The position numbers and the translations under genes are program-made. Below are positions 815 to 56,608 of a stretch of 64,000 nucleotides of DNA, piece by piece (position 1 is the first letter of the stretch; every line of letters starts with the position of its first letter). This stretch comes from Octopus vulgaris (taxonomy: Eukaryota): contig OX597819.1 of the NCBI GenBank assembly GCA_951406725.2, positions 51,274,001 through 51,338,000 on the forward strand. The letters run 5' to 3'. The notes under the pieces were generated by a model. It was not told the DNA's origin. It worked only from the letters and a program-made list of their open reading frames with translations, and did no database searches.

Positions 815-1702
815 ATCATCATCATCATTGTTCGACCGTGGTCGAGACAATGGAATTTACCATGCTACGCCAGACTTCACGGTCCATCATGGCATTACGG
901 AGGTCCTGTTGCTGGATGCCTGTATCCCTGGAGATTACATCAGGGTAGGAGAGTGTGCGCCCTCTGGTATTGCGAGTAGATGGCTTCCAGAGGAGAAGAG
1001 TAGAAATTACTTCTTTTTCAGCTCTACAACAATGTCCAGCAAACTGGACTCTCCTACCTTTCACAAGAGATGACACAGGTGGTAGTTTCCCATATATTTG
1101 CATTTTGGTTGGATGGCGCTTCCACGAGAGATTTTGAGCTCTCATAAGGAGGCGAGTGTAGGTTCCATCCAACCGCCTCTCAAGCTTCTTTGATAACGTC
1201 CAGGTTACTGAGCCATATAGTAGAATTGGTTCGACTGTGGCTTTGAATATTTCAAGTTTGAAGTCTCTACTTAGATTTGATGACCAGATCTTATGCATGT
1301 CATTACAGGCTGACCAGGCCATACCCTTTCTAGTTAGAAAGTCTTTTCCAGATGATGATATGTATGACCCAAGATATTTATAATCAGAAACCATATTTAA
1401 GGGCGCGTTGTTGAGAGTATGGATGATGCAATCACTGTTGGACAGGCACCTATTTATGTATTCAGTTTTGGCCTCATTGAGGTAAAGACCTACACAATTT
1501 GAGGCTTGTTCAAGAGATTGTAAAAGAGACTGGGCATTGGAGAGAGAATCACTGATGAGAGCGATGTCGTCAGCAAAGTCAGTGTCTGTCAAGTACTCAG
1601 CTGGGTGTCTGGAACTTCTTCTTGGTTTTATTTCAAAGCCCTTGCCAGAGATGGTATCAACTGACATACGTAGCACATAATGAACAACAATGATGAAAAA
1701 GG
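815..1702 (-). mobile_element. 5'-truncated RTE-clade LINE (RT C-terminal half, (TGA)n tail)
   Basis: ORF 825..1781(-) has FIIVVHYVLR, TDFADDIAL (RT F/YADD motif), YKYLGS, ILLYGSVTW, FAGHC; stop followed by (TGA)n tail (plus strand atcatcatcatc at ~815-827). Confidence 0.9.
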
Positions 1703-2157
1703 ATCTCTCATTTCTTTTCATCAACAGAAATGAGAGATCCTCATATCGCAAGAGAAACAAAAAGAAAAAATTCATCTTCAAAAATTAATACGACTTCAAC
1801 ATCAAACCCGATAAATATATTTAGATCCGCAGGCAGATATTTGCCAAAAAAACCCCCAAAAAAACACCTACAAGAATGGAACCGCAAAGCCCCGAACTAG
1901 ACACATCTTACATCTCCTATAGGTCAAACACATAGAGACAAATTAAAGAATCCTTTAATGAAAAGCATAATCAAACGTACTAATACATATCAGAACATAA
2001 GAAAGAAAGCAGCCAGTTCTGGTGACAACATAGATATTCACATGTGCCCACATAAATAAACAAAGAAAGACTCCTAAAATTCTATAATTAAAAATATCAT
2101 ATGATATATCACATAATATATAAATAAGAACACGCCTTCCTCAGAATACATATGCAT

Positions 2158-4570: not shown

Positions 4571-6092
<1,522 letters not shown>

Positions 6093-6764
6093 ATGAGGGA
6101 GACAGACAAACAGACAGCAGGCAGACAAATAAATAGATAAACAGACAGACAAGGAATTGTATGTAATGTACTAGAAGGATATAGTCTAAGAACAAGGGGA
6201 TACGAAGCAAGAAATAATATCCATGTTAATCACGAATAGAGCAAACGAGAAATTAATTCACCCACAACCTTATGTAATTTCATCACGGCACAACATTACA
6301 TCAACAATAAGAATGCTTACTGCTTAATCCCAGTTCTAATTAATCATTTAACTCCCCTATCGTTCTCATAAGCGGCACCAAAACTTAAGAATATAGAAAC
6401 TCAGTAGGAGTATATAAAATAATTTTATATTATACAAGTAAAATGTAAAAGAATACGAAAGCAAATTAGGAAAGCTTATCTTTGACATTATATAGAAGCA
6501 CCTTATCGTTTTTCGCACAGTATGGCGTCCAAGATCTCCCGTTGAGGTACATCGGTATTTTCTAAATATGAAGGATTTAACAACTGAAAATAATATTCTC
6601 GTACGATCTTAATTACACGTTAATTCATTTCAGAAATATTCTGCTATTCTCTCTCCTTGCTTCATAAAAATGAAACTCGACGCATTATATGACAGCCAAG
6701 CAGTTACTTTTATTCATAAAGTTAGTTTTAACCTAGTTAATGCAGTGTAAGTAATAGAGCTGGT

Positions 6765-13128: not shown

Positions 13129-16100
13129 GATATTAAACAACCAAAGCTGAAACCCCAATCCACCACACAAACAGCAGAGTACCCCATGGAGGATCCAATG
13201 CCACCCAGTACACTTCAGGAAAGAAGAAATCTGGAAGGCACCAAAGAACCTGTAAATTCTACCTGCGGGGCAAATGTTGGCATGGGGAGGACGGCAAACA
13301 CTGCCGGTTCGCCCACCGGACACCCCGACAGAGCTTCATGGGACTCAAAGAGAAGAGCTTTACTGAGGGAAGACAAGAAATGTCTCCCAGGAAAACTTTC
13401 AGAAAAGAAGTGTGCTCCTCAGATGTTCTGCGCAACGCAGCAGCTGAGCAAGAGTCTTTTTTGTGCATAGCGCAAAAGATTGTCCAGCAGCTAACCTGGC
13501 TACACCAAGCACAGAGAAGGAACCCTGCCCACCACTATGCAAGACCACCACAGTCAACAGACACGGGATGGCCTCCCCTAACGCCTGCACAGCCGTCACC
13601 CCAACACGTTTACTAAATATTGGGGGCCTGTTGCATCAAAATAGAAACGAAATTTCTTTCCTGAGAGATCTTACTGCATGCAATCAACCCTATGCATGGC
13701 ACTCGTGGAAACTCACCTCAGCCCTGATATAGAGGACGCAGAAGTACACATACAAAACTATGCCATACTGCGAACAGACAGAAGGGAATGGAGCCATGGG
13801 GGTGTAGCTGTATACATCCGAGATGACCTCACACCCCAAGTCTTTATGACATACTCAAATTCGGTATGTGACACTTTAATTGTATACATAAGGCAACATA
13901 ATATAGTCATTTGCAATACATATTGCCCACCGGATGCTCCAAATCACATAGGCAAGTTTGAAGTTTTCCTCACAAGAATTAAAGAAATCCTCATGAATCT
14001 GGAACACCACGTGACCATCTTTCTTATGGGTGATTTCAACTTCGCCAAAGTCAAATGACCCGAAGGTCTCATACTCTCAGGAATGAATCATTGCAAGCAA
14101 GTCCCTGCTCAACTTCACCAATGCATTATTCACGGAGCAAGTTGTACTCAAACCAACTAGGGCGAATAACATTCTGGATCTCTGCTTCACGAACAATATG
14201 GACATCATTCATGATGTGAAAGTGACAGCGACATTAGTTTCGGATTACAACATAATAGAGCTGCCTATGTTTGGGCCGAAAGTAACCAGAGACATACAGC
14301 CTAAAGGAAGCACCCAAAATCTCTCCAATCTGAACTTCCACAAAGCAGATTGGAAATCGATCCAAAAAGAGATCCTCAGAGAGGACTGGCCGGAATGTCT
14401 CTCAACACCAGGCATTGACATGAATCTAGAATATTTCATGTCTTCTGTGCAAGCCGTATGCCAGAAATATGTCCCAGAGCACAAGGCCAAAACAAATAGG
14501 AGCAAGATTCCAAGAGACAGGAAGATCCTCATGAGACGACGGACGAAGGTTGCAAATCGTCTCAACCAACATCCCAAAAGTAGCGAAACGTCCCGCCTAA
14601 ATCAACACTGATGGAGATCGAAAAAAGGCTGCAACAATCCTATGTGAGGGAGAAAGCAGACAAAGAAGCCTGGGTTATAAAAAACATTAAATCAAACCCA
14701 AAGGCCTTCTTTCATTACGCGAAAGAAACAGTCTCAGTACACTACAAGATAGGACCCCTCCTCCAAAAGGATGGCCCCCTTACAGACAGTCCAACTAAGA
14801 TCAGTGAGATGCTGAATGACCAGTTCAAAGTGTCTTTACCACCCCGTTGGAACACAGATGAGTGAACGAACCAGTGGACTTCTTTGCCACCTCACCTATA
14901 ACCAGCGATGCGGTTACAATAGAATGTATTGACATTAGCGAAGAAGATGTCCTACTAGCCATAGATGAAGTGGACACAAACTCAACTGCTGGTCCAGATG
15001 GTTTCCCAGCAATCCTCTTCAAAGCGTGTAAGCATGCCCTGGCAAAACCCCTCAAGATTCTCTTCCAGAGCTTTCTTACAAATGGCAAACTGCCAAGCAA
15101 GCTGAAGGAGGTAATAATATGCCCAATACACAAAGGGGGATGTAGAGCAGATGCCAAAAACTATAGGCATATCTGTCTGACTTCACACATCAGCAAAGTC
15201 ATGGAACGGATAGTCAGAAAGAAACTAATCGCATTCCTTGAGGATAATAACTTGCTGAGTGATACCCAGCATGGTTTTCGACTAGGTAGGAGCTGCCTGA
15301 CCCAGCTCTTACAACATCATGACTGGGTGTTGAGGCAGTTACTCAACAAATCAAATGTGGACGTAATCTACCTTGATTTTGCAAAAGCTTTTGACAAGGT
15401 GGATCATGGTATGATATGCTACAAACTGCGTGACCTCGGCATAGCTGGAAAACTTGGAGTGTGGTTACATGACTTCCTGAAAGAAAAGTGTCAGGCTGTA
15501 GTGGTTAATGGAGCCACCTCTATGAACACACAAATAGTGAGGGGTGTTCCACAGGACACTGTCTTGGGACCACTGCTTTTTATAGTGGCCCTCTCAGATA
15601 TGCCCTCAAATGCCCGGATAGCCACTCTGGCAAGCTATGCAGATGATACGAAAGTCTCGCAGAAAATACAGAACCCCAGCGATGTTGCACACCTGCAGCA
15701 GGAGTTGGACTCAATCAACAGATGGGCTGAGGATAATAATATGCAGTTTAATGCTGAAAAATTCCAGGCCCTGCGCTACCAGCATCCAAAACTCAATATT
15801 AAACTTACAGGATTCACCGGTCTACAGGGAATCGACATGAGTGAAGATACCTCTTTCCAAGTGCATATTACCAGAATGTCGACAAAGTGCAGACGACTGG
15901 CTGGATGGATCCTAAGAACATTCAGAACCAGAGATAAGGAAACCATGATGGTCCTCTGGATTACTGCTCACAGCTATGGTCACCCACCAGTGTGAAATTA
16001 ACAGCGGACCTTGAAGAAATCCAGAGAAGATTCACAAAGAAGATCGTCTCTTTGCAACTGGGAAAGGTTGAAACAGCTAAGACTTTACTCCCTGGAGAGA

Positions 16101-16560
16101 AGACGGGAGAGGTATGCAGTAATATATGTCTGGAATATCCTGGAAGGATTTGTGCCAAATTTTGGCATTGTAAGCTACACCAATGCTAGAACGGGACGAC
16201 ACTGCACAGTACCAAAGATCCCAGTAATGCCATCACGCTTCAGGACCAGCTACTACAACAGCCTGGGTTTCAAGGGCCCACAGCTTTTTAATATTCTCCC
16301 AAAGAGTCTGAGGAACTTGCATAAAGTAGATGTAACGGTTTTTAAATTAAAACTGGACATCTTCCTGTCGAGAGTCCCAGATGAACCTACCTCACAGCGA
16401 GAGGTGCAAATGAGGGTAGCTATATCAAACTCCATTCTTCACCAAGTGCCATATATTAGAGGAGGCTTTTCGTAATAACAGTGTAGCACAAAACGGCGGT
16501 GCATCAGCATGGCCGCAGCTCTGAGCTGAATCAAGAAAAACGAAAAACAAAAAACAATAA
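13129..16560 (+). mobile_element. CR1-like LINE, ORF2 (APE endonuclease + RT) pseudogenised
   Basis: APE motifs LNIGGL, ETHL, HGGVAVY, MGDFN (13610-14060); RT GPDG, QHGFR, YLDFAKAFDKVDH, GVPQDTVLGPLLF, YADD (14862..15995); C-terminal LYSLERRRER; several frameshifts/stops; tail ggcggtgcatcagcatggccgcagct. Confidence 0.93.
14862..15995 (+). pseudogene. Reverse transcriptase domain of CR1-like LINE (disrupted ORF2 segment)
   Basis: 377-aa open frame with all core non-LTR RT motifs, frameshifted at both ends. Confidence 0.9.
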
Positions 16561-48909: not shown

Positions 48910-49418
48910 TAATCCAAACAAGGAAACACAAACAAGGAAACACAGAAAAAAAGAGAAAAAAAAACACACCATATATATATATATTTCCCTGAGTCGTGTT
49001 CTGTCCTCACCTTCGAAACACACTGGAGTTGAACTAGGGACAGCTGATGAAGGGGTTTTTTCCTTGTGTAGTTTGTCTCGTACTCTGTTTTTTTAGTTTA
49101 GGTCCGTTTCCACGTTTGTTTTTACGTTTTCGTTTCTCGTTGAGTTCTACGTCTATTTGTGGTGTCCTGTACTCACGTATATATATTTATATATACATGT
49201 AGATGTAGGTACGTACATATATGTATGTATGTATGCATATATTTTATTTATTACACTATTGTATGACTGAGCGCCCTCGCGTCTATTCGATTCGTTTTCG
49301 TTTCGTTTAATCTCCTCCAAGTAAGTTTTGTTATATATATATATATATATGTAGGTCCCGGGTTGAGTCGGGGTTAACCACAGTAAATAAGGTACTCAAT
49401 ACATAGCAGAGTAAATTA

Positions 49419-49550
49419 ATTTATTATATAGAAGGAGCTTCTACAGGACTAGAACTGTTTCATTCAAAAGAAATCATCAGGAAGCTTCCTGATGATTTCT
49501 TTTGAATGAAACAGTTCTAGTCCTGTAGAAGCTCCTTCTATATAATAAAT
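49419..49550. repeat. Perfect 132-bp palindrome without spacer
   Basis: Arms 49419-49484 and 49485-49550 are exact reverse complements, centre gaag|cttc. Confidence 0.97.
49483..49533 (+). ncRNA. Type-I hammerhead ribozyme motif (mirror copy on minus at 49436-49486)
   Basis: AGCTTC CTGATGA TTTC TTTT GAAT GAAA CAG ttctagtc CTG TA GAAGCT; canonical core, 6-bp stem I, GUA site after 49527; weak stem II. Confidence 0.75.
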
Positions 49551-49559
49551 ATATATATA

Positions 49560-52392
49560 TATACAAATAAATGAAAGAATGGAGTTGGACGACGATTTAA
49601 CAAAATTCCTTTATTCTCGACATATGTTTCGAAGGCTGCATATTCCTAATTTCGAAGGAATAAGGGGTGCATTATGCCGCCTTCTCATCAGGAAAATAAG
49701 GAACTTATGTCAGCATCAAGATGAACAAAAACTTTTAGATGACTGCCCATACGGAGCCCATAGCGATAATGAGTGTTTCTTTAAAATATTCCGTTATAAG
49801 CAGTGACGTCAAAAATGGTTGAATGTAGAAGATTCTCGAAAGTTCAAGGGTTCAAACAAGGTTGGAGGAGAGAGGTCTAAGAATAGGAAGGTGACAGGGT
49901 GCAAGTCATATTCTTTTGTGATTGAGTGCCTATGTGTGTGTATGTATATAACTGCATTCGTGTCTATGTGTGTGTATGTGTGTGCGTGATTGTGTGTGTG
50001 GTTGGGTAGATGCCAAATACAAATAGTGGTGAAGTGACAGGTTTGTGTCTGTGTGTTTGATTGTGCTTACGATAGAGAGGGGGAAAGGGAGAGAGAGGAG
50101 GGCGAGGTAGAGAGACAAAGGTAAAACATACCTCAATGAATTGAGTAGTAGTCCTTTATGAGTATAAAAATTTGACAATGGGGGTAATGTATAAATGGAA
50201 CCAAATTATTAAAATTCAAGGAGGTTATCTATATTAATCATCATTCATATGAGTGAAATGTGTGTTTCTGCCAGTGCATGCACCTATAGGATTTTTCGAC
50301 CAATGTATTTATTAAAGGGAATTTGGCGAACAATATATGGTAAAGTTCGGAATTACAGACGCCACAAAATTTCCTGCTCTTATCAAACGGAAAGGATACA
50401 GACAATATGGACCATTCCAGCTTGAAAGTTGTATTGCTGTCCTTAAGACGCCAAACTAATTTACTTAGTCCTGTGCTTTGTTGTTTTCTCTTATCTCGGA
50501 AAGTTGAATAATGATTGGAGATCCTCTGGGCTAATTTAGAAGTAGTTGCCCCAATGTAGAAGAAGACATCGGTACCGGAAGAAATTTTACACTGGTAAAT
50601 GGAGTTTCTAATTTTGGAATTGCTGGATAAGAACTTTAATCTGTTAGGGTTTACCTCCGAGACTAAGACGGAGTTTTTATTGTTATGATTGCTGTTAATA
50701 TTATTGCTAGCATTGACCACAATACTATTCCTATTATTATCATTACTATTAATTGTACTATCGTCGGCAATTTCCCTGACTATAGGAATGCTGGGGTTGT
50801 TATCATCAATACTACCACTGTTATTAGAAATGCTGTCGTTATTACCACTAACACTACCACTGTTAATAATCCGACTAATATTATTATTGATATTACTATT
50901 GTTAATGCCAACGCTGCTATGAATGTTGCTATTATCAATACTATTTCTATTATTATTATTATTGTATGTTTGGTTGGAATTGGTAAGGGCAGTGTCGTAA
51001 CTCCCGGGTGATGAATCCTTATTTAGCAGCTTGTTATTATGGGAGGCAATGATCTGCGATAGATTTCTAGTGTTGGAGAATGCAATCCTTACCTTATGCG
51101 AATTGATAGTAGAGTAATACCTAGAATTCCTGGGAAAGTTCCTAGCTACGGCTTCACGGAACTGTAAAGGGAGGTTTGACCTGATTTGTTTCCCGAAAGG
51201 TATGACAAACCAGATATAGTTTTTTGTGAACTTAGAATAGTTCAGAGTGTTACCATTTACATTAAAGGGAGTATTTCTGTGCTGGAGAATTGGTGTTGGT
51301 TGCCGATTGCCTCCCCTGGTCCGTAAATTATTTTTGTTAAGTATAGTGGTGTCGACGTTGTTAGAGCTGAAATCATTATTTACATTATTTCTATTGTTAT
51401 TAGTTTTCTTATCCCGAGAAGCATATATCGGTTTAGAATGGTCCGGGTCGATATATGATACTTTATCTCTATAACCGGCTTTTGACAAGGCGGCGTTATA
51501 AAATTCCGCTTTTTGGTTAAAGATGTCGACATTAGCAGATAAATTTGATAGTCTTAAGGAAATATTTTAAACTAAATTATCGATGATAGTTTTGGCATGG
51601 TTACTGAAAATGCTGATATATTTAAGATTAGTAGAAGGCTTATGATAAGGGAAGTAAGAATTATTCTGCAGATTTGGGGTAACATCTAAGAAGTTGGCTT
51701 TAGTTAATTCGTCGTCGAAAGCTATGCTCAAGCCCATTCTGCTAAAAAGTCTAGCTAATCTGTTTTTAGACTTCTGTATCATATTGTTCGGAGCATTCTG
51801 TAGGTAAAGTAGACCATCGTCTCGATACAGACCGCCGCAGATGTCCGGGAATTGGTTGGCCAATTCATAGAGAATATAGATTCCGACCAAATCGGCTATC
51901 TGGGCGCTATCTGTACTTCCCACTAGCACATCGAACGCGTTGGTGGGTATCCCTGCGGACCCATAACTTATCATCGAACTGTATGAAGGATTTTCTAGCC
52001 GCTAAAATTACATTAATTTCCTCCCTGGAGAGGCCTGCCTTATTATGTGCGTGCCATAGGGCCTTATTGAGTACACTAGGGTTGATCGAAGGGTAGAAAC
52101 TAGATATATCGAATTGAATGAATTTTGTGTTGTCTTTATTAGTAATAGAAGTAAACCACTCTACGACTTGAGTGGAGTTAGACCATAGGCTGAGTTTTAA
52201 CTTATTGATTAATATAGGTATGTATTTATCTAAAATGTACTTACTAAGGGTACCGATGTCAGAACTAGAGGGGCATGTGAGCCTTAATGCCGGGTTGGTA
52301 TGAAAGTTTGGTTTATGGTCCTTAACGATGAATCTTGGTTGTCTGGGGTTCAGCGGTTGGGTTTTCATTTGTAATCCATACGTTTCCATGAT
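49560..52392 (-). mobile_element. 5'-truncated Penelope-like retroelement (RT + C-terminal GIY-YIG; Neptune-like motifs)
   Basis: ORFs 51907..52389 (KDHKPNF..NP..RL, FDISSFYPSI), 51567..51974 (GLYRDDGL, NFLDVT, PYHKP), 50241..51488 (WF..PF, SIYQCKI..FYIGAT..QRISNH, C..C..E); one frameshift and one in-frame TAA; HHR in 3' end. Confidence 0.92.
49613..49697 (-). ncRNA. Canonical minimal type-I hammerhead ribozyme in Penelope 3' pLTR
   Basis: Minus: ATTTTC CTGATGA GAAGGC...GCCTTC GAAA CATATG TC GAGAAT; G-C closed stem II, palindromic stem III ACATATGT, GUC site, 6-bp stem I with one G-U. Confidence 0.87.
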
Positions 52393-52443
52393 TTTCTTAA
52401 TTTACATTATATACATATATATATATATGTGTGTGTATATGTG

Positions 52444-54357: not shown

Positions 54358-56608
54358 GTCATAAGCCAACTAATTAGAGAGAGAGTTAGTTTAGATGAGA
54401 TGCAGTTTGGTTTCGTGCCAGGGAAAAGTACCACTGATGCTATATTCCTGGTAAGGCAGCTGCAGGAGAAATACCTAGCCAAAGATAAGCCCCTGTACCT
54501 GGCTTTTGTTGACATGGAGAAAGCCTTCGACAGGGTCCCCTGATCCCTCATATGGTGGTCAATGAGGAAACTAGGAATAGATGAATGGTTAGTGAGAGCT
54601 GTGCAAGCCATGTACAGGGACGCTGCTAGTAAGGTGAGCGTTGGCAATGAGTACAGTGAAGAATTCCGGGTAGAGGTAGGGGTCCACCAAGGCTCAGTCC
54701 TCAGCCCCTCCTATTTATCATAGTCCTCCAGGCAATAACGGAGGAATTCAAGACAGGATGCCCCTGGGAGCTCCTCTATGCTGATGACCTTGCTCTAATT
54801 GCTGAGTCATTATCAGAACTGGAGAAGAAGTTTCAGGTGTGGAAGCATGGTTTAGAATCGAAGGGCCTTAGAATCAACCTAGCTAAAACCAAAGTCCTAA
54901 TAAGTAGGAAGGTAGACAAATCACAAACGCCTTCAGGTAGATGGCCCTGCTCGATCTGTAGAAAAGGTGTAGGTAGAAACTCTATAAGATGCACCAAGTG
55001 TAAGCTATGGACACATAAGAGGTGCAGCAATGTCATAGGAAGGCTAACTAGGAAGATGGTTTTTGTATGTGGCAGATGCTCGGGAGCATTAACCTCTGAA
55101 AATCTGCAGAAAACAACTTCCGTCACTTTCCAGGGGAAAAAACTAGAAGTAGTTGATAGCTTCCGTTATCTTGGTGACCAAGTCAGTAGTGGGGGTGGGT
55201 GTGATGAAAGTGTAACGGCTAGAGTAAGAATAGCCTGGGCAAAGTTTAGGGAGCTCTTACCTCTGTTGGTGACTAAAGGCCTCTCGCTCAGAGTAAAAGG
55301 CAGACTGTATGATGCATGTGTACGAACAGCCATGCTACATGGCAGTGAAACATGGGCCGTGACTGCTGAGGACATGCGTAAGCTCGCGAGAAATGAAGCT
55401 AGTATGCTCCGTTGGATGTGTAATGTCAGTGTTCATAGTCGACAGAGTGTAAGTACCTTGAGAGAAAAGTTGGACCTAAGAGGAATCAGATGTTGTGTGC
55501 AAGAGAGACGATTGCGCTGGTATGGTCATGTGGTGAGAATGGATGAAGATAGGTGTGTGAAAAAGTGCCACACCCTGGCAGTTGAGGGGACCTGTGGAAA
55601 AGGTAGACCCAGGAAAACCTGGGTCGAGGTGGTGAAGCACGACCTTCGAACTCTAGGTCTCACCAAGGAAATGACCAGAGACCGAGACCTATGGAAGTAT
55701 GCTGTGCGTGAGAAGACCCGGCAAGACCAGTGAGAACAATCAAAATAAAGCAGGGGTTAAGTGACCCATCCGTTCGTGTCCGCTGTCAGCCTCGTCTGGC
55801 ACCCGTGCCGGTGATACGTAAAAGCACCATTCGCTCGTGGCCGTTTGCCAGTTCTGCCTGGCCCCCGTGTCGGTGGCACGTAAAAGCACCATCCGTTCGT
55901 GTTCGTTGCCAGCCTCGCCTGGCCCTGTGCCGGTGACACGTAAAAGCACCGTCCGTTCGTGGCCGTTCGCCAGCTCTGTCTGGCCCCGTGTCGGTGGCAC
56001 GTAAAAGCACCATCCGTTCGTGGCCGTTTGCCAGCTCTGTCTGGCCCCGTGTCGGTGGCACGTAAAAGCACCATCCGTTCGTGTCCGTTGCCAGCCTCGG
56101 CTGGCCCCCGTGCCGGTGACACGTAAAAGCACCATCCGTTCGTGGCCGTTTGCCAGCTCTGTCTGGCAACCGTGTCGGTGGCACGTAAAAGCACCATCCG
56201 TTCGCGTCCGTTGCCAGCCTCGGCTGGCCCCTGTGCCGGTGACACGTAAAAGCACCATCCGTTCGTGGCCGTTTGCCAGCTCTGTCTGGCCCCGTGTCGG
56301 TGGCACGTAAAAGCACCATCCGTTCGTGTCCGTTGCCAGCATCGCCTGGCCCCGTGCCGGTGACACGTAAAAGCACCATCCGTTCGTGGCCGTTCGCCAG
56401 CTCTGTCTGGCACCTGTGCAGGTGGCACGTAAAAAACACCCACTACACTCGCGGAGTGGTTGGCGTTAGGAAGGGCATCCAGCCGTAGAAACACTGCCAG
56501 ATCTGACTGGGCCTGACGAAGCCTTCCAGCTTCACAGACCCCAGTTGACCCGTCCAACCCATGCTAGCATGGAAAGCGGACGCTAAATGATGATGATGAT
56601 GATGATGA

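Follow-up and report, generated by a model that had tools for sequence, protein, structure and literature searches.

Hundreds of promoter-less palindromic Penelope-like insertions in Octopus vulgaris have an axis that likely marks a transcription start

We found that an exact palindrome in a 64,000-nucleotide stretch of Octopus vulgaris DNA (the window) belongs to a promoter-less, 200-bp Penelope-like insertion present in hundreds of copies, which was probably formed by two run-off cDNAs annealing through a shared AGCT. Judged from the sequence, the axis of the palindrome likely marks a transcription start and not stem I of the overlapping hammerhead motif. Taken alone, the window locus is an ordinary transposon fragment; the octopus genome provides hundreds of such minimal products with countable junctions.

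The palindrome occupies 49419-49550 (both strands) and consists of two 66-bp arms with no spacer, meeting at GAAG/CTTC between 49484 and 49485. This is the exact, spacer-free 132-bp palindrome of the original prediction; the runner-up complex palindrome in the 64-kb window had arms of only 12 bp. By palindrome search and motif scan, the arms are two head-to-head copies of the pLTR of a parent element that overlap in AGCT (49483-49486), which junction and arm-end analysis points to as the RNA 5' end (+1 to +4). Each arm begins at parent position +1, the A of AGCTTCC. Copy comparison defined a one-sided 68-bp tail at 49351-49418 (minus strand; parent +69 to +136), lying between the two putative reverse-transcription start sites, and palindrome and tail together make up the 200-bp insertion within (TA)n. 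The palindrome itself had been described as embedded in (TA)n. This holds on its right side (49549-49563, where the repeat is common to the end of the neighbouring element) but not on its left, where the tail of the same insertion intervenes before the (TA)n at 49333-49350. The insertion and the neighbouring Penelope-like element thus share one (TA)n target, and a target duplication is unreadable in the (TA)n around the insertion. A MITE or fold-back DNA transposon was rejected as the source, as the ends are asymmetric (one tail) and the arms come from a reverse-transcriptase element.

Palindromes can arise during library preparation, and an assembly or amplification artefact was therefore weighed. 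The axis is bridged in contigs of two independent DNA runs (X2 record 10 and X6 record 18), which extend at least 31 letters to either side of it. They differ by 3 and 5 letters plus one gap each and so support the family form; the flanks of the window locus itself are uncovered by them because repeats were skipped. Of the spanning reads proposed as a check, the bridging of the axis was thus obtained but not that of the locus's flanks. With hundreds of loci carrying the same one-sided tail and biologically patterned junctions, an artefact is hardly credible.

A type I hammerhead descriptor found cores starting at 49489 on the plus strand (position 17 = A49527) and at 49480 on the minus strand (position 17 = 49442), so that the same hammerhead-like motif does lie on both strands, as had been proposed. 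The only other match in the window was the motif of the neighbouring element at 49691 (minus strand), and 20 shuffled windows gave none. In the tail-less arm, sequence and descriptor scan place the predicted hammerhead at 49483-49533 (plus strand), with stem I at 49483-49488/49528-49533, the core at 49489-49495, stem II at 49497-49499/49504-49506, GAAA at 49508-49511, stem III at 49512-49514/49523-49525 and a predicted cut after A49527. The identical predicted hammerhead of the tail-bearing arm spans 49436-49486 (minus strand). The motif has the type I features of the descriptor (core CUGANGA, GAAA, UH and three stems) and is atypical in having a 3-bp stem II closed by U-U (U49496 opposite U49507) and no conserved G10.1-C11.1. 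Loop III contains the palindrome CUAG; a palindromic loop III core is described as expected of dimer-type PLE ribozymes (PMC4209133). Rfam returned no match at gathering score, and with an E-value threshold no hammerhead family was listed, the top matches being hairpin and miRNA models under their own gathering scores.

For the 51-mer, the predicted hammerhead fold had an energy of -7.3 kcal/mol, against -7.6 for the best fold. The computed pairing probability of stem I was about 0.11 in the 66-mer and 0.0 within the palindrome, whose full hairpin was predicted at -106.7 kcal/mol. With stem I pairing thus falling to zero in the prediction, this 66-bp hairpin would be expected to trap both ribozymes of a read-through transcript and prevent either from folding. 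Palindromic insertions would then likely be dead-end by-products, valuable as a record of mechanism. As a side effect, the genome would hold several hundred perfect or near-perfect 60-66-bp hairpins, a source of dsRNA if read through.

Single-base G deletions in one arm recur beside the predicted cut, at +46 (12 of 200 arms) and +49 (18 of 200), corresponding to 49528, 49531 and their mirror positions, and are never mirrored; a few complex insertions (L169, L173, L138) also lie there. These deletions may be assembly errors, and their reading as traces of copying across cleaved RNA was set aside. They were unlisted at a 5% threshold in contigs of eight public runs and, being unconfirmed there, are not used as evidence.

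A search of the genome (2.8 Gb) gave 465 candidates, and all 40 that were scored carried the palindrome at 96-100% identity. Thirty fetched loci showed one unit of about 200 bp, the 68-bp tail plus the palindrome, between (TA)n runs. The ORF of the neighbouring element was absent beside the unit in the other 29 of 29 fetched loci, L010 adjoining the ribozyme end of that family. Exact pattern matching, which yields lower bounds, located the central 24-mer at at least 354 loci, single arms of two sequence variants at least 1639 and at least 431 times, and arms with a different base before AGCT at least 731 times; these last led to the parent element. Versions with the tail and a short spacer gave 701 matches, some loci possibly being counted twice. 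Sampled loci came from contigs C1-C3 only, among the matches listed. The family is young, with a mean of 0.53 differences per 50 tail bases from the window copy (92 of 100 copies scored). The supposed youth of the event was therefore right, but not its uniqueness as a just-captured fold-back: the 354 exact centres show that other copies are joined at the same AGCT, a point the original prediction had raised. Zero mismatches are also common, as 14 of 36 exact-junction loci have arms identical to position 58 or beyond.

Among the first 100 short-spacer loci, 36 had the exact junction and the remaining 64 were spread over 44 other types; these show templated insertions and small deletions at sites of microhomology. 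None of the 100 continued into the upstream sequence of the parent. This variation indicates that most copies arose independently. Alternatively, one or a few original exact palindromes could have multiplied as a non-autonomous, SINE- or MITE-like mini-element, which would suit the 354 identical centres, the uniform length and the 96-99% identity of the best matches. We regard this as improbable. Forty-five junction types in 100 loci and across subfamilies make a single master copy unlikely, the frequency of subfamily markers does not differ between exact and other junctions (12/36 vs 19/63; Fisher p 0.82), and a third subfamily repeats the mix of exact, near-exact and kilobase spacings. Moreover, the insertion has no internal promoter and its tail-less end is an ordinary 3' end of the parent. 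A retrozyme or self-propagating SINE was rejected in view of the opposite-strand motifs, the absent promoter and the 45 junction types over subfamilies.

The parent is a Penelope-like element with a pLTR containing the hammerhead motif, an ORF with reverse-transcriptase and GIY-YIG-like parts, a long repeat-rich 3' region and a second pLTR (L111, L072). In L111 the order is pLTR-ORF-pLTR, that is, the ORF lies between direct pLTRs (a partial tandem). In 16 fetched regions many parent copies lay in divergent pairs separated by as little as tens of bases and as much as about 7 kb, with the tail on one arm wherever it was seen. We take the parent to resemble the Penelope/Poseidon clade (versus Neptune, Nematis and Hydra). 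The fetched copies are broken, and their protein pieces matched RVT_1 at E 0.0033, below the cut-off, with no Pfam match to GIY-YIG. One of the atlas neighbours of the parent pieces at 0.96 is a GIY-YIG cluster (23% of members), and mollusc neighbours also occur. The C-terminal piece shows LVY...YIG as well as Cys/His residues, and the domain order is consistent with an endonuclease-bearing PLE. A pLTR-flanked ORF, an inverted copy and a one-sided tail are published PLE architecture (PMC8557442; PMC3846280). The assembled contigs of four runs guessed to be RNA cover the region and show no splice joint of a pLTR intron and no transcription start.

Several further features of the parent were noted. 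About 2 kb between the ORF and the 3' pLTR is mostly (TA)/(TG) microsatellite (L072 3420-5640; L111 about 4770-6530) with an embedded SINE-like piece, and recalls the captured spacers described for rotifer Pen1 (PMC3846280). The promoter region holds CACCC-rich and GCCAT motifs. L107 and L108 are direct tandems with every unit beginning at +1/+2, the first one extending beyond the tail by some 100-300 nt, into the ORF. Such arrangements suggest additional internal start sites, and template jumps that land on the RNA 5' end. In L064 (4172-5724, minus strand) a different Penelope-like ORF is enclosed by inverted arms of the palindrome's family, and several other inverted pairs of this family enclose unrelated sequence.

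The start base of AGCT lies 29 nt below the perfect TATA box of the parent (first T of TATAAAT to +1; TATAAATG), a promoter that is absent from the window insertion. The same distance was found in 39 of 39 promoter-bearing arm records, in which places fetched twice may count twice. Such a distance is typical of polymerase II starts. The ends of unselected arms (94 classified of 100; six were not fetched) pile up at this base: 34 at +1, 13 at +2, 14 at +3 to +6, none at -1 to -6, and 33 further upstream. Where both arms reached +1 and were separated by a non-parental insert, a cap-type G stood at sense -1 in 47 of 58 ends (29 loci; a hand count among 50 of 54 loci listed), and in the set of 100 loci 26 of 39 such ends had the same cap-type base. 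An extra G at full-length L1 junctions marks cap copying (PMC11702581). In the octopus this signal is confounded, since nearby CAGG/TCA templates many inserts and 10 loci have one common insert. Nor is the +1 edge absolute: parental-type upstream bases are kept in 20 of the 50 listed loci with both arms complete, with inserts of up to 16 nt.

Instead of a transcription start, the stop at AG/CT might represent a 3' splice site, or a point at stem I where reverse transcriptase stalls. A pyrimidine-rich stretch and TAG do precede CTTCC in the parent, and the intron of the D. virilis element is reported to end at stem I (PMC4209133). However, A and G are kept at non-palindromic junctions (including loose ends before L111:2422), which places the ends at +1 and not at +3, and the related family B described below joins 78 nt away from its ribozyme core. 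We therefore give a splice site or stall little credence and read +1 as the likely start of transcription. The axis then falls within stem I only because the RNA of this family is predicted to begin with stem I.

The neighbouring Penelope-like element (49564-52400, minus strand; upper boundary approximate, from ORF pieces) offered a comparison. This element, family B, has its own hammerhead (core 49691, minus strand; position 17 = 49619). A derivation of the palindrome from it is not supported: the element has no blastn match to the parent, shares 23-58% amino-acid identity with it (tblastx pieces, E 2e-90) and carries a different ribozyme. The search for a parent, also part of the original prediction, thus succeeded (L111, L072), but with an element other than the adjacent Penelope family. 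Pfam gave nothing for the neighbour's four ORF pieces. The putative start of family B, at 49770, is 28 nt below a TATA-like box and 78 nt upstream of the ribozyme core. Its head-to-head pairs cluster about 150 nt apart, and in 15 pairs picked by eye from the listing 12 of 30 arms end at -1/+1 of an Inr-like A. Among unselected arms, 12 of 35 end at -2 to +11, versus 1 at -3 to -16, a broader pile-up than in the palindrome's family. In L327 both arms are complete and a central CG represents one extra non-parental base per arm. Joining of family B at its own stem I start was rejected, as only 18 loci had short spacers there; the pattern for ends at that stem I base matched 29 times, and roughly half of these matches were longer copies with point changes. 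The start of family B lacks self-complementarity, and most junctions of this family are imperfect. Family B thus joins far from its ribozyme, at a TATA-linked site, so that the axis appears to follow the promoter and the perfection of the palindrome to follow from AGCT. The proposal that self-complementary stem I served as the priming site is accordingly half right: AGCT matters, but priming by stem I as such does not fit an axis that tracks the TATA-linked start in two families. The family B promoter also contains, just above the TATA-like box (window 49791-49812, minus strand), the sequence TGACGTCA, which we take to be a CRE-like motif.

Other repeats were seen in the window. At 48985-49320 (plus strand) lies a third repeat family with 3050 candidates, of which 40 were scored, at 93-100%. 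It carries hammerhead core words in an unusual order, GTGTTC-TGTCC, then CCTTC-GAAA-CAC, then GGACAG-CTGATGA-AGGGG, with matching possible stems. This order is not standard type I, II or III; it could be due to chance, or belong to a hammerhead that is permuted or works only as a dimer. The 29 copies compared were too similar for any covariation to show, and some copies form inverted pairs. A tandem array of about 11 copies of a 61-bp unit (55766-56434) presumably resembles a cephalopod SINE segment. Fragments of non-LTR retrotransposons with endonuclease and RVT_1 matches lie at 13645-16475 (plus), 825-1784 (minus) and 54660-55733 (plus).

The tail was present on exactly one arm in 100 of 100 loci and in 10 of 10 short loci, and the tail-less arm ended at +59 to +72, where long and solo copies also end. 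Mirror-pair junction types occurred 5 vs 5, 3 vs 2 and 6 vs 2 times, with no clear arm polarity. In 97 of 100 loci the two arms carried concordant subfamily markers. L159 (1 of 100) and L014, L021 and L023 (3 of 29) have arms that disagree at positions where the subfamilies themselves vary; this would favour two cDNAs, although chance mutations could also account for these four loci.

These features bear on a single cDNA that snaps back and primes itself, giving a hairpin of which one arm is later trimmed by the endonuclease at an AT-rich site to leave a one-sided tail. We take this to be the idea of the original prediction and close to a published model. The marker agreement in 97 of 100 loci suits it, as do the 5 of 100 junctions with CT/AG and a 4-nt loop, which would accommodate a small hairpin. 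Published interpretations also lean this way: PMC3846280 explains palindromic head-to-head junctions by self-priming on an antisense template, and PMC8557442 attributes the tail to resolution by the endonuclease. Yet the most frequent junction lacks a loop, both arms often retain +1 with an insert between them, and in some mirror-image junctions the complete arm is the tail-less one. An antisense template does not predict a sense-strand, TATA-linked pile-up with a cap-type G, and PMC11167929, as far as its text describes, links the tail to two start sites and not to trimming. Fold-back of a tailed cDNA gives no reason for synthesis to end at the second start site, and a tail cannot be acquired by copying a cDNA that lacks one; this favours two cDNAs unless the endonuclease trims a symmetric hairpin. 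A zero-spacer junction should also form more easily by annealing of two strands than as a loopless hairpin. We consider self-priming unlikely on these grounds, and fold-back primed at stem I in particular is not supported, since all 110 of 110 loci have the tail on a single arm and the family B start is 78 nt from its ribozyme.

In the favoured origin from two cDNAs, the element's enzyme would nick both strands of the (TA)n target and prime one cDNA on each, at two sites near the RNA 5' end (near +66 and +136). Both cDNAs would run off the predicted capped start of the RNA. Their AGCT ends could then anneal over 4 bp to give the perfect palindrome, and the other junctions would arise by microhomology joining and templated insertions. 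The observations behind this are the pLTR-ORF-pLTR parent, the one-arm tail, the pile-up at +1, the invariant TATA spacing, the varied junctions and the matching arm markers; from them we infer that +1 is the transcription start, that the extra G is a copied cap and that there were two separate priming events. The 97/100 marker concordance fits one RNA or one active source, but is also what a single fold-back cDNA predicts. For a related element in vitro, extension of both target strands from two internal start sites that define the tail has been described (PMC11167929); the same source presents this element, PAc, as a predicted dimer for which ribozyme cleavage is not required.

It is about an even chance that PLEs integrate bidirectionally by design, a dimeric enzyme making two cDNAs primed on sense RNA that are joined head-to-head. 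Starts in the 5' pLTR would yield a 'double strong-stop' palindrome and starts in the 3' pLTR long inverted repeats. If so, the axis maps the transcription start to the base, start sites can be read from genomes alone, and the inverted repeats of PLEs would derive from bidirectional cDNA joining in place of antisense self-priming. A sharp prediction follows: the axis should be the capped start with an extra G, and should vary by family independently of the ribozyme.

Head-to-head PLE palindromes with one tail and opposite-strand hammerheads are already described (PMC3846280, PMC4209133), and the link of the junction to a transcription start appears new. In the main texts covered, a partial sample of the literature, we found none that connects the head-to-head junctions of PLEs with a capped start or with the annealing of two run-off cDNAs, and the main text of the octopus repeat-annotation paper (PMC13282606) does not contain 'palindrom', 'ribozyme' or 'hairpin'. 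The origin of PLE tandem and inverted structures has been named an open problem (PMC8557442), and the in vitro work on PLEs, as described in PMC11167929, stops before second-strand synthesis and joining.

Pen2a and Pen3a of Adineta vaga (PMC3846280; also PMC8557442) likewise have head-to-head pLTRs, a junction palindrome and a tail at one end, together with an AT-rich target and TATA and Inr-like motifs in the pLTR (PMC3846280). Unlike them, the octopus insertion consists of two arms only, with no ORF and no promoter, at hundreds of loci, and its tail is 68 bp vs 30-40 (PMC3846280). Its junction is tied to one base, 29 nt below TATA and accompanied by a cap-type G. These features argue for a sense template, while PMC3846280 favoured antisense self-priming. 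The hammerheads of PLE pLTRs (PMC4209133) share the type I topology and the palindromic core in loop III, and in Schistosoma mansoni paired motifs are reported 100-700 bp apart on opposite strands. The octopus motifs differ from those described there in their zero spacer, 3-bp stem II and U-U for G10.1-C11.1, and in a stem I that begins at the predicted first RNA base. The D. virilis Penelope is described with an internal TATA-less promoter and an intron ending at stem I (PMC2377424; PMC4209133), so the TATA/axis geometry is not universal.

The Poseidon element PAc of Anolis carolinensis (PMC11167929) resembles the octopus system in its two internal starts bounding the tail, its AT-rich targets, the cutting and extension of both strands and a ribozyme near the ORF start. 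In the octopus parent the ORF starts downstream of the tail and not within the ribozyme as in PAc, and joining of the two extended strands is not described in the parts of PMC11167929 consulted. L1 twin priming, with joining of two separately extended cDNA ends (PMC11702581), is similar in its primers on opposite target strands, microhomology joining and extra cap G. Priming of L1 is described there as taking place at the poly(A) end and as using neighbouring stretches of one RNA; by contrast, both octopus cDNAs would copy the same 5'-terminal 66-136 nt, which would give a true palindrome.
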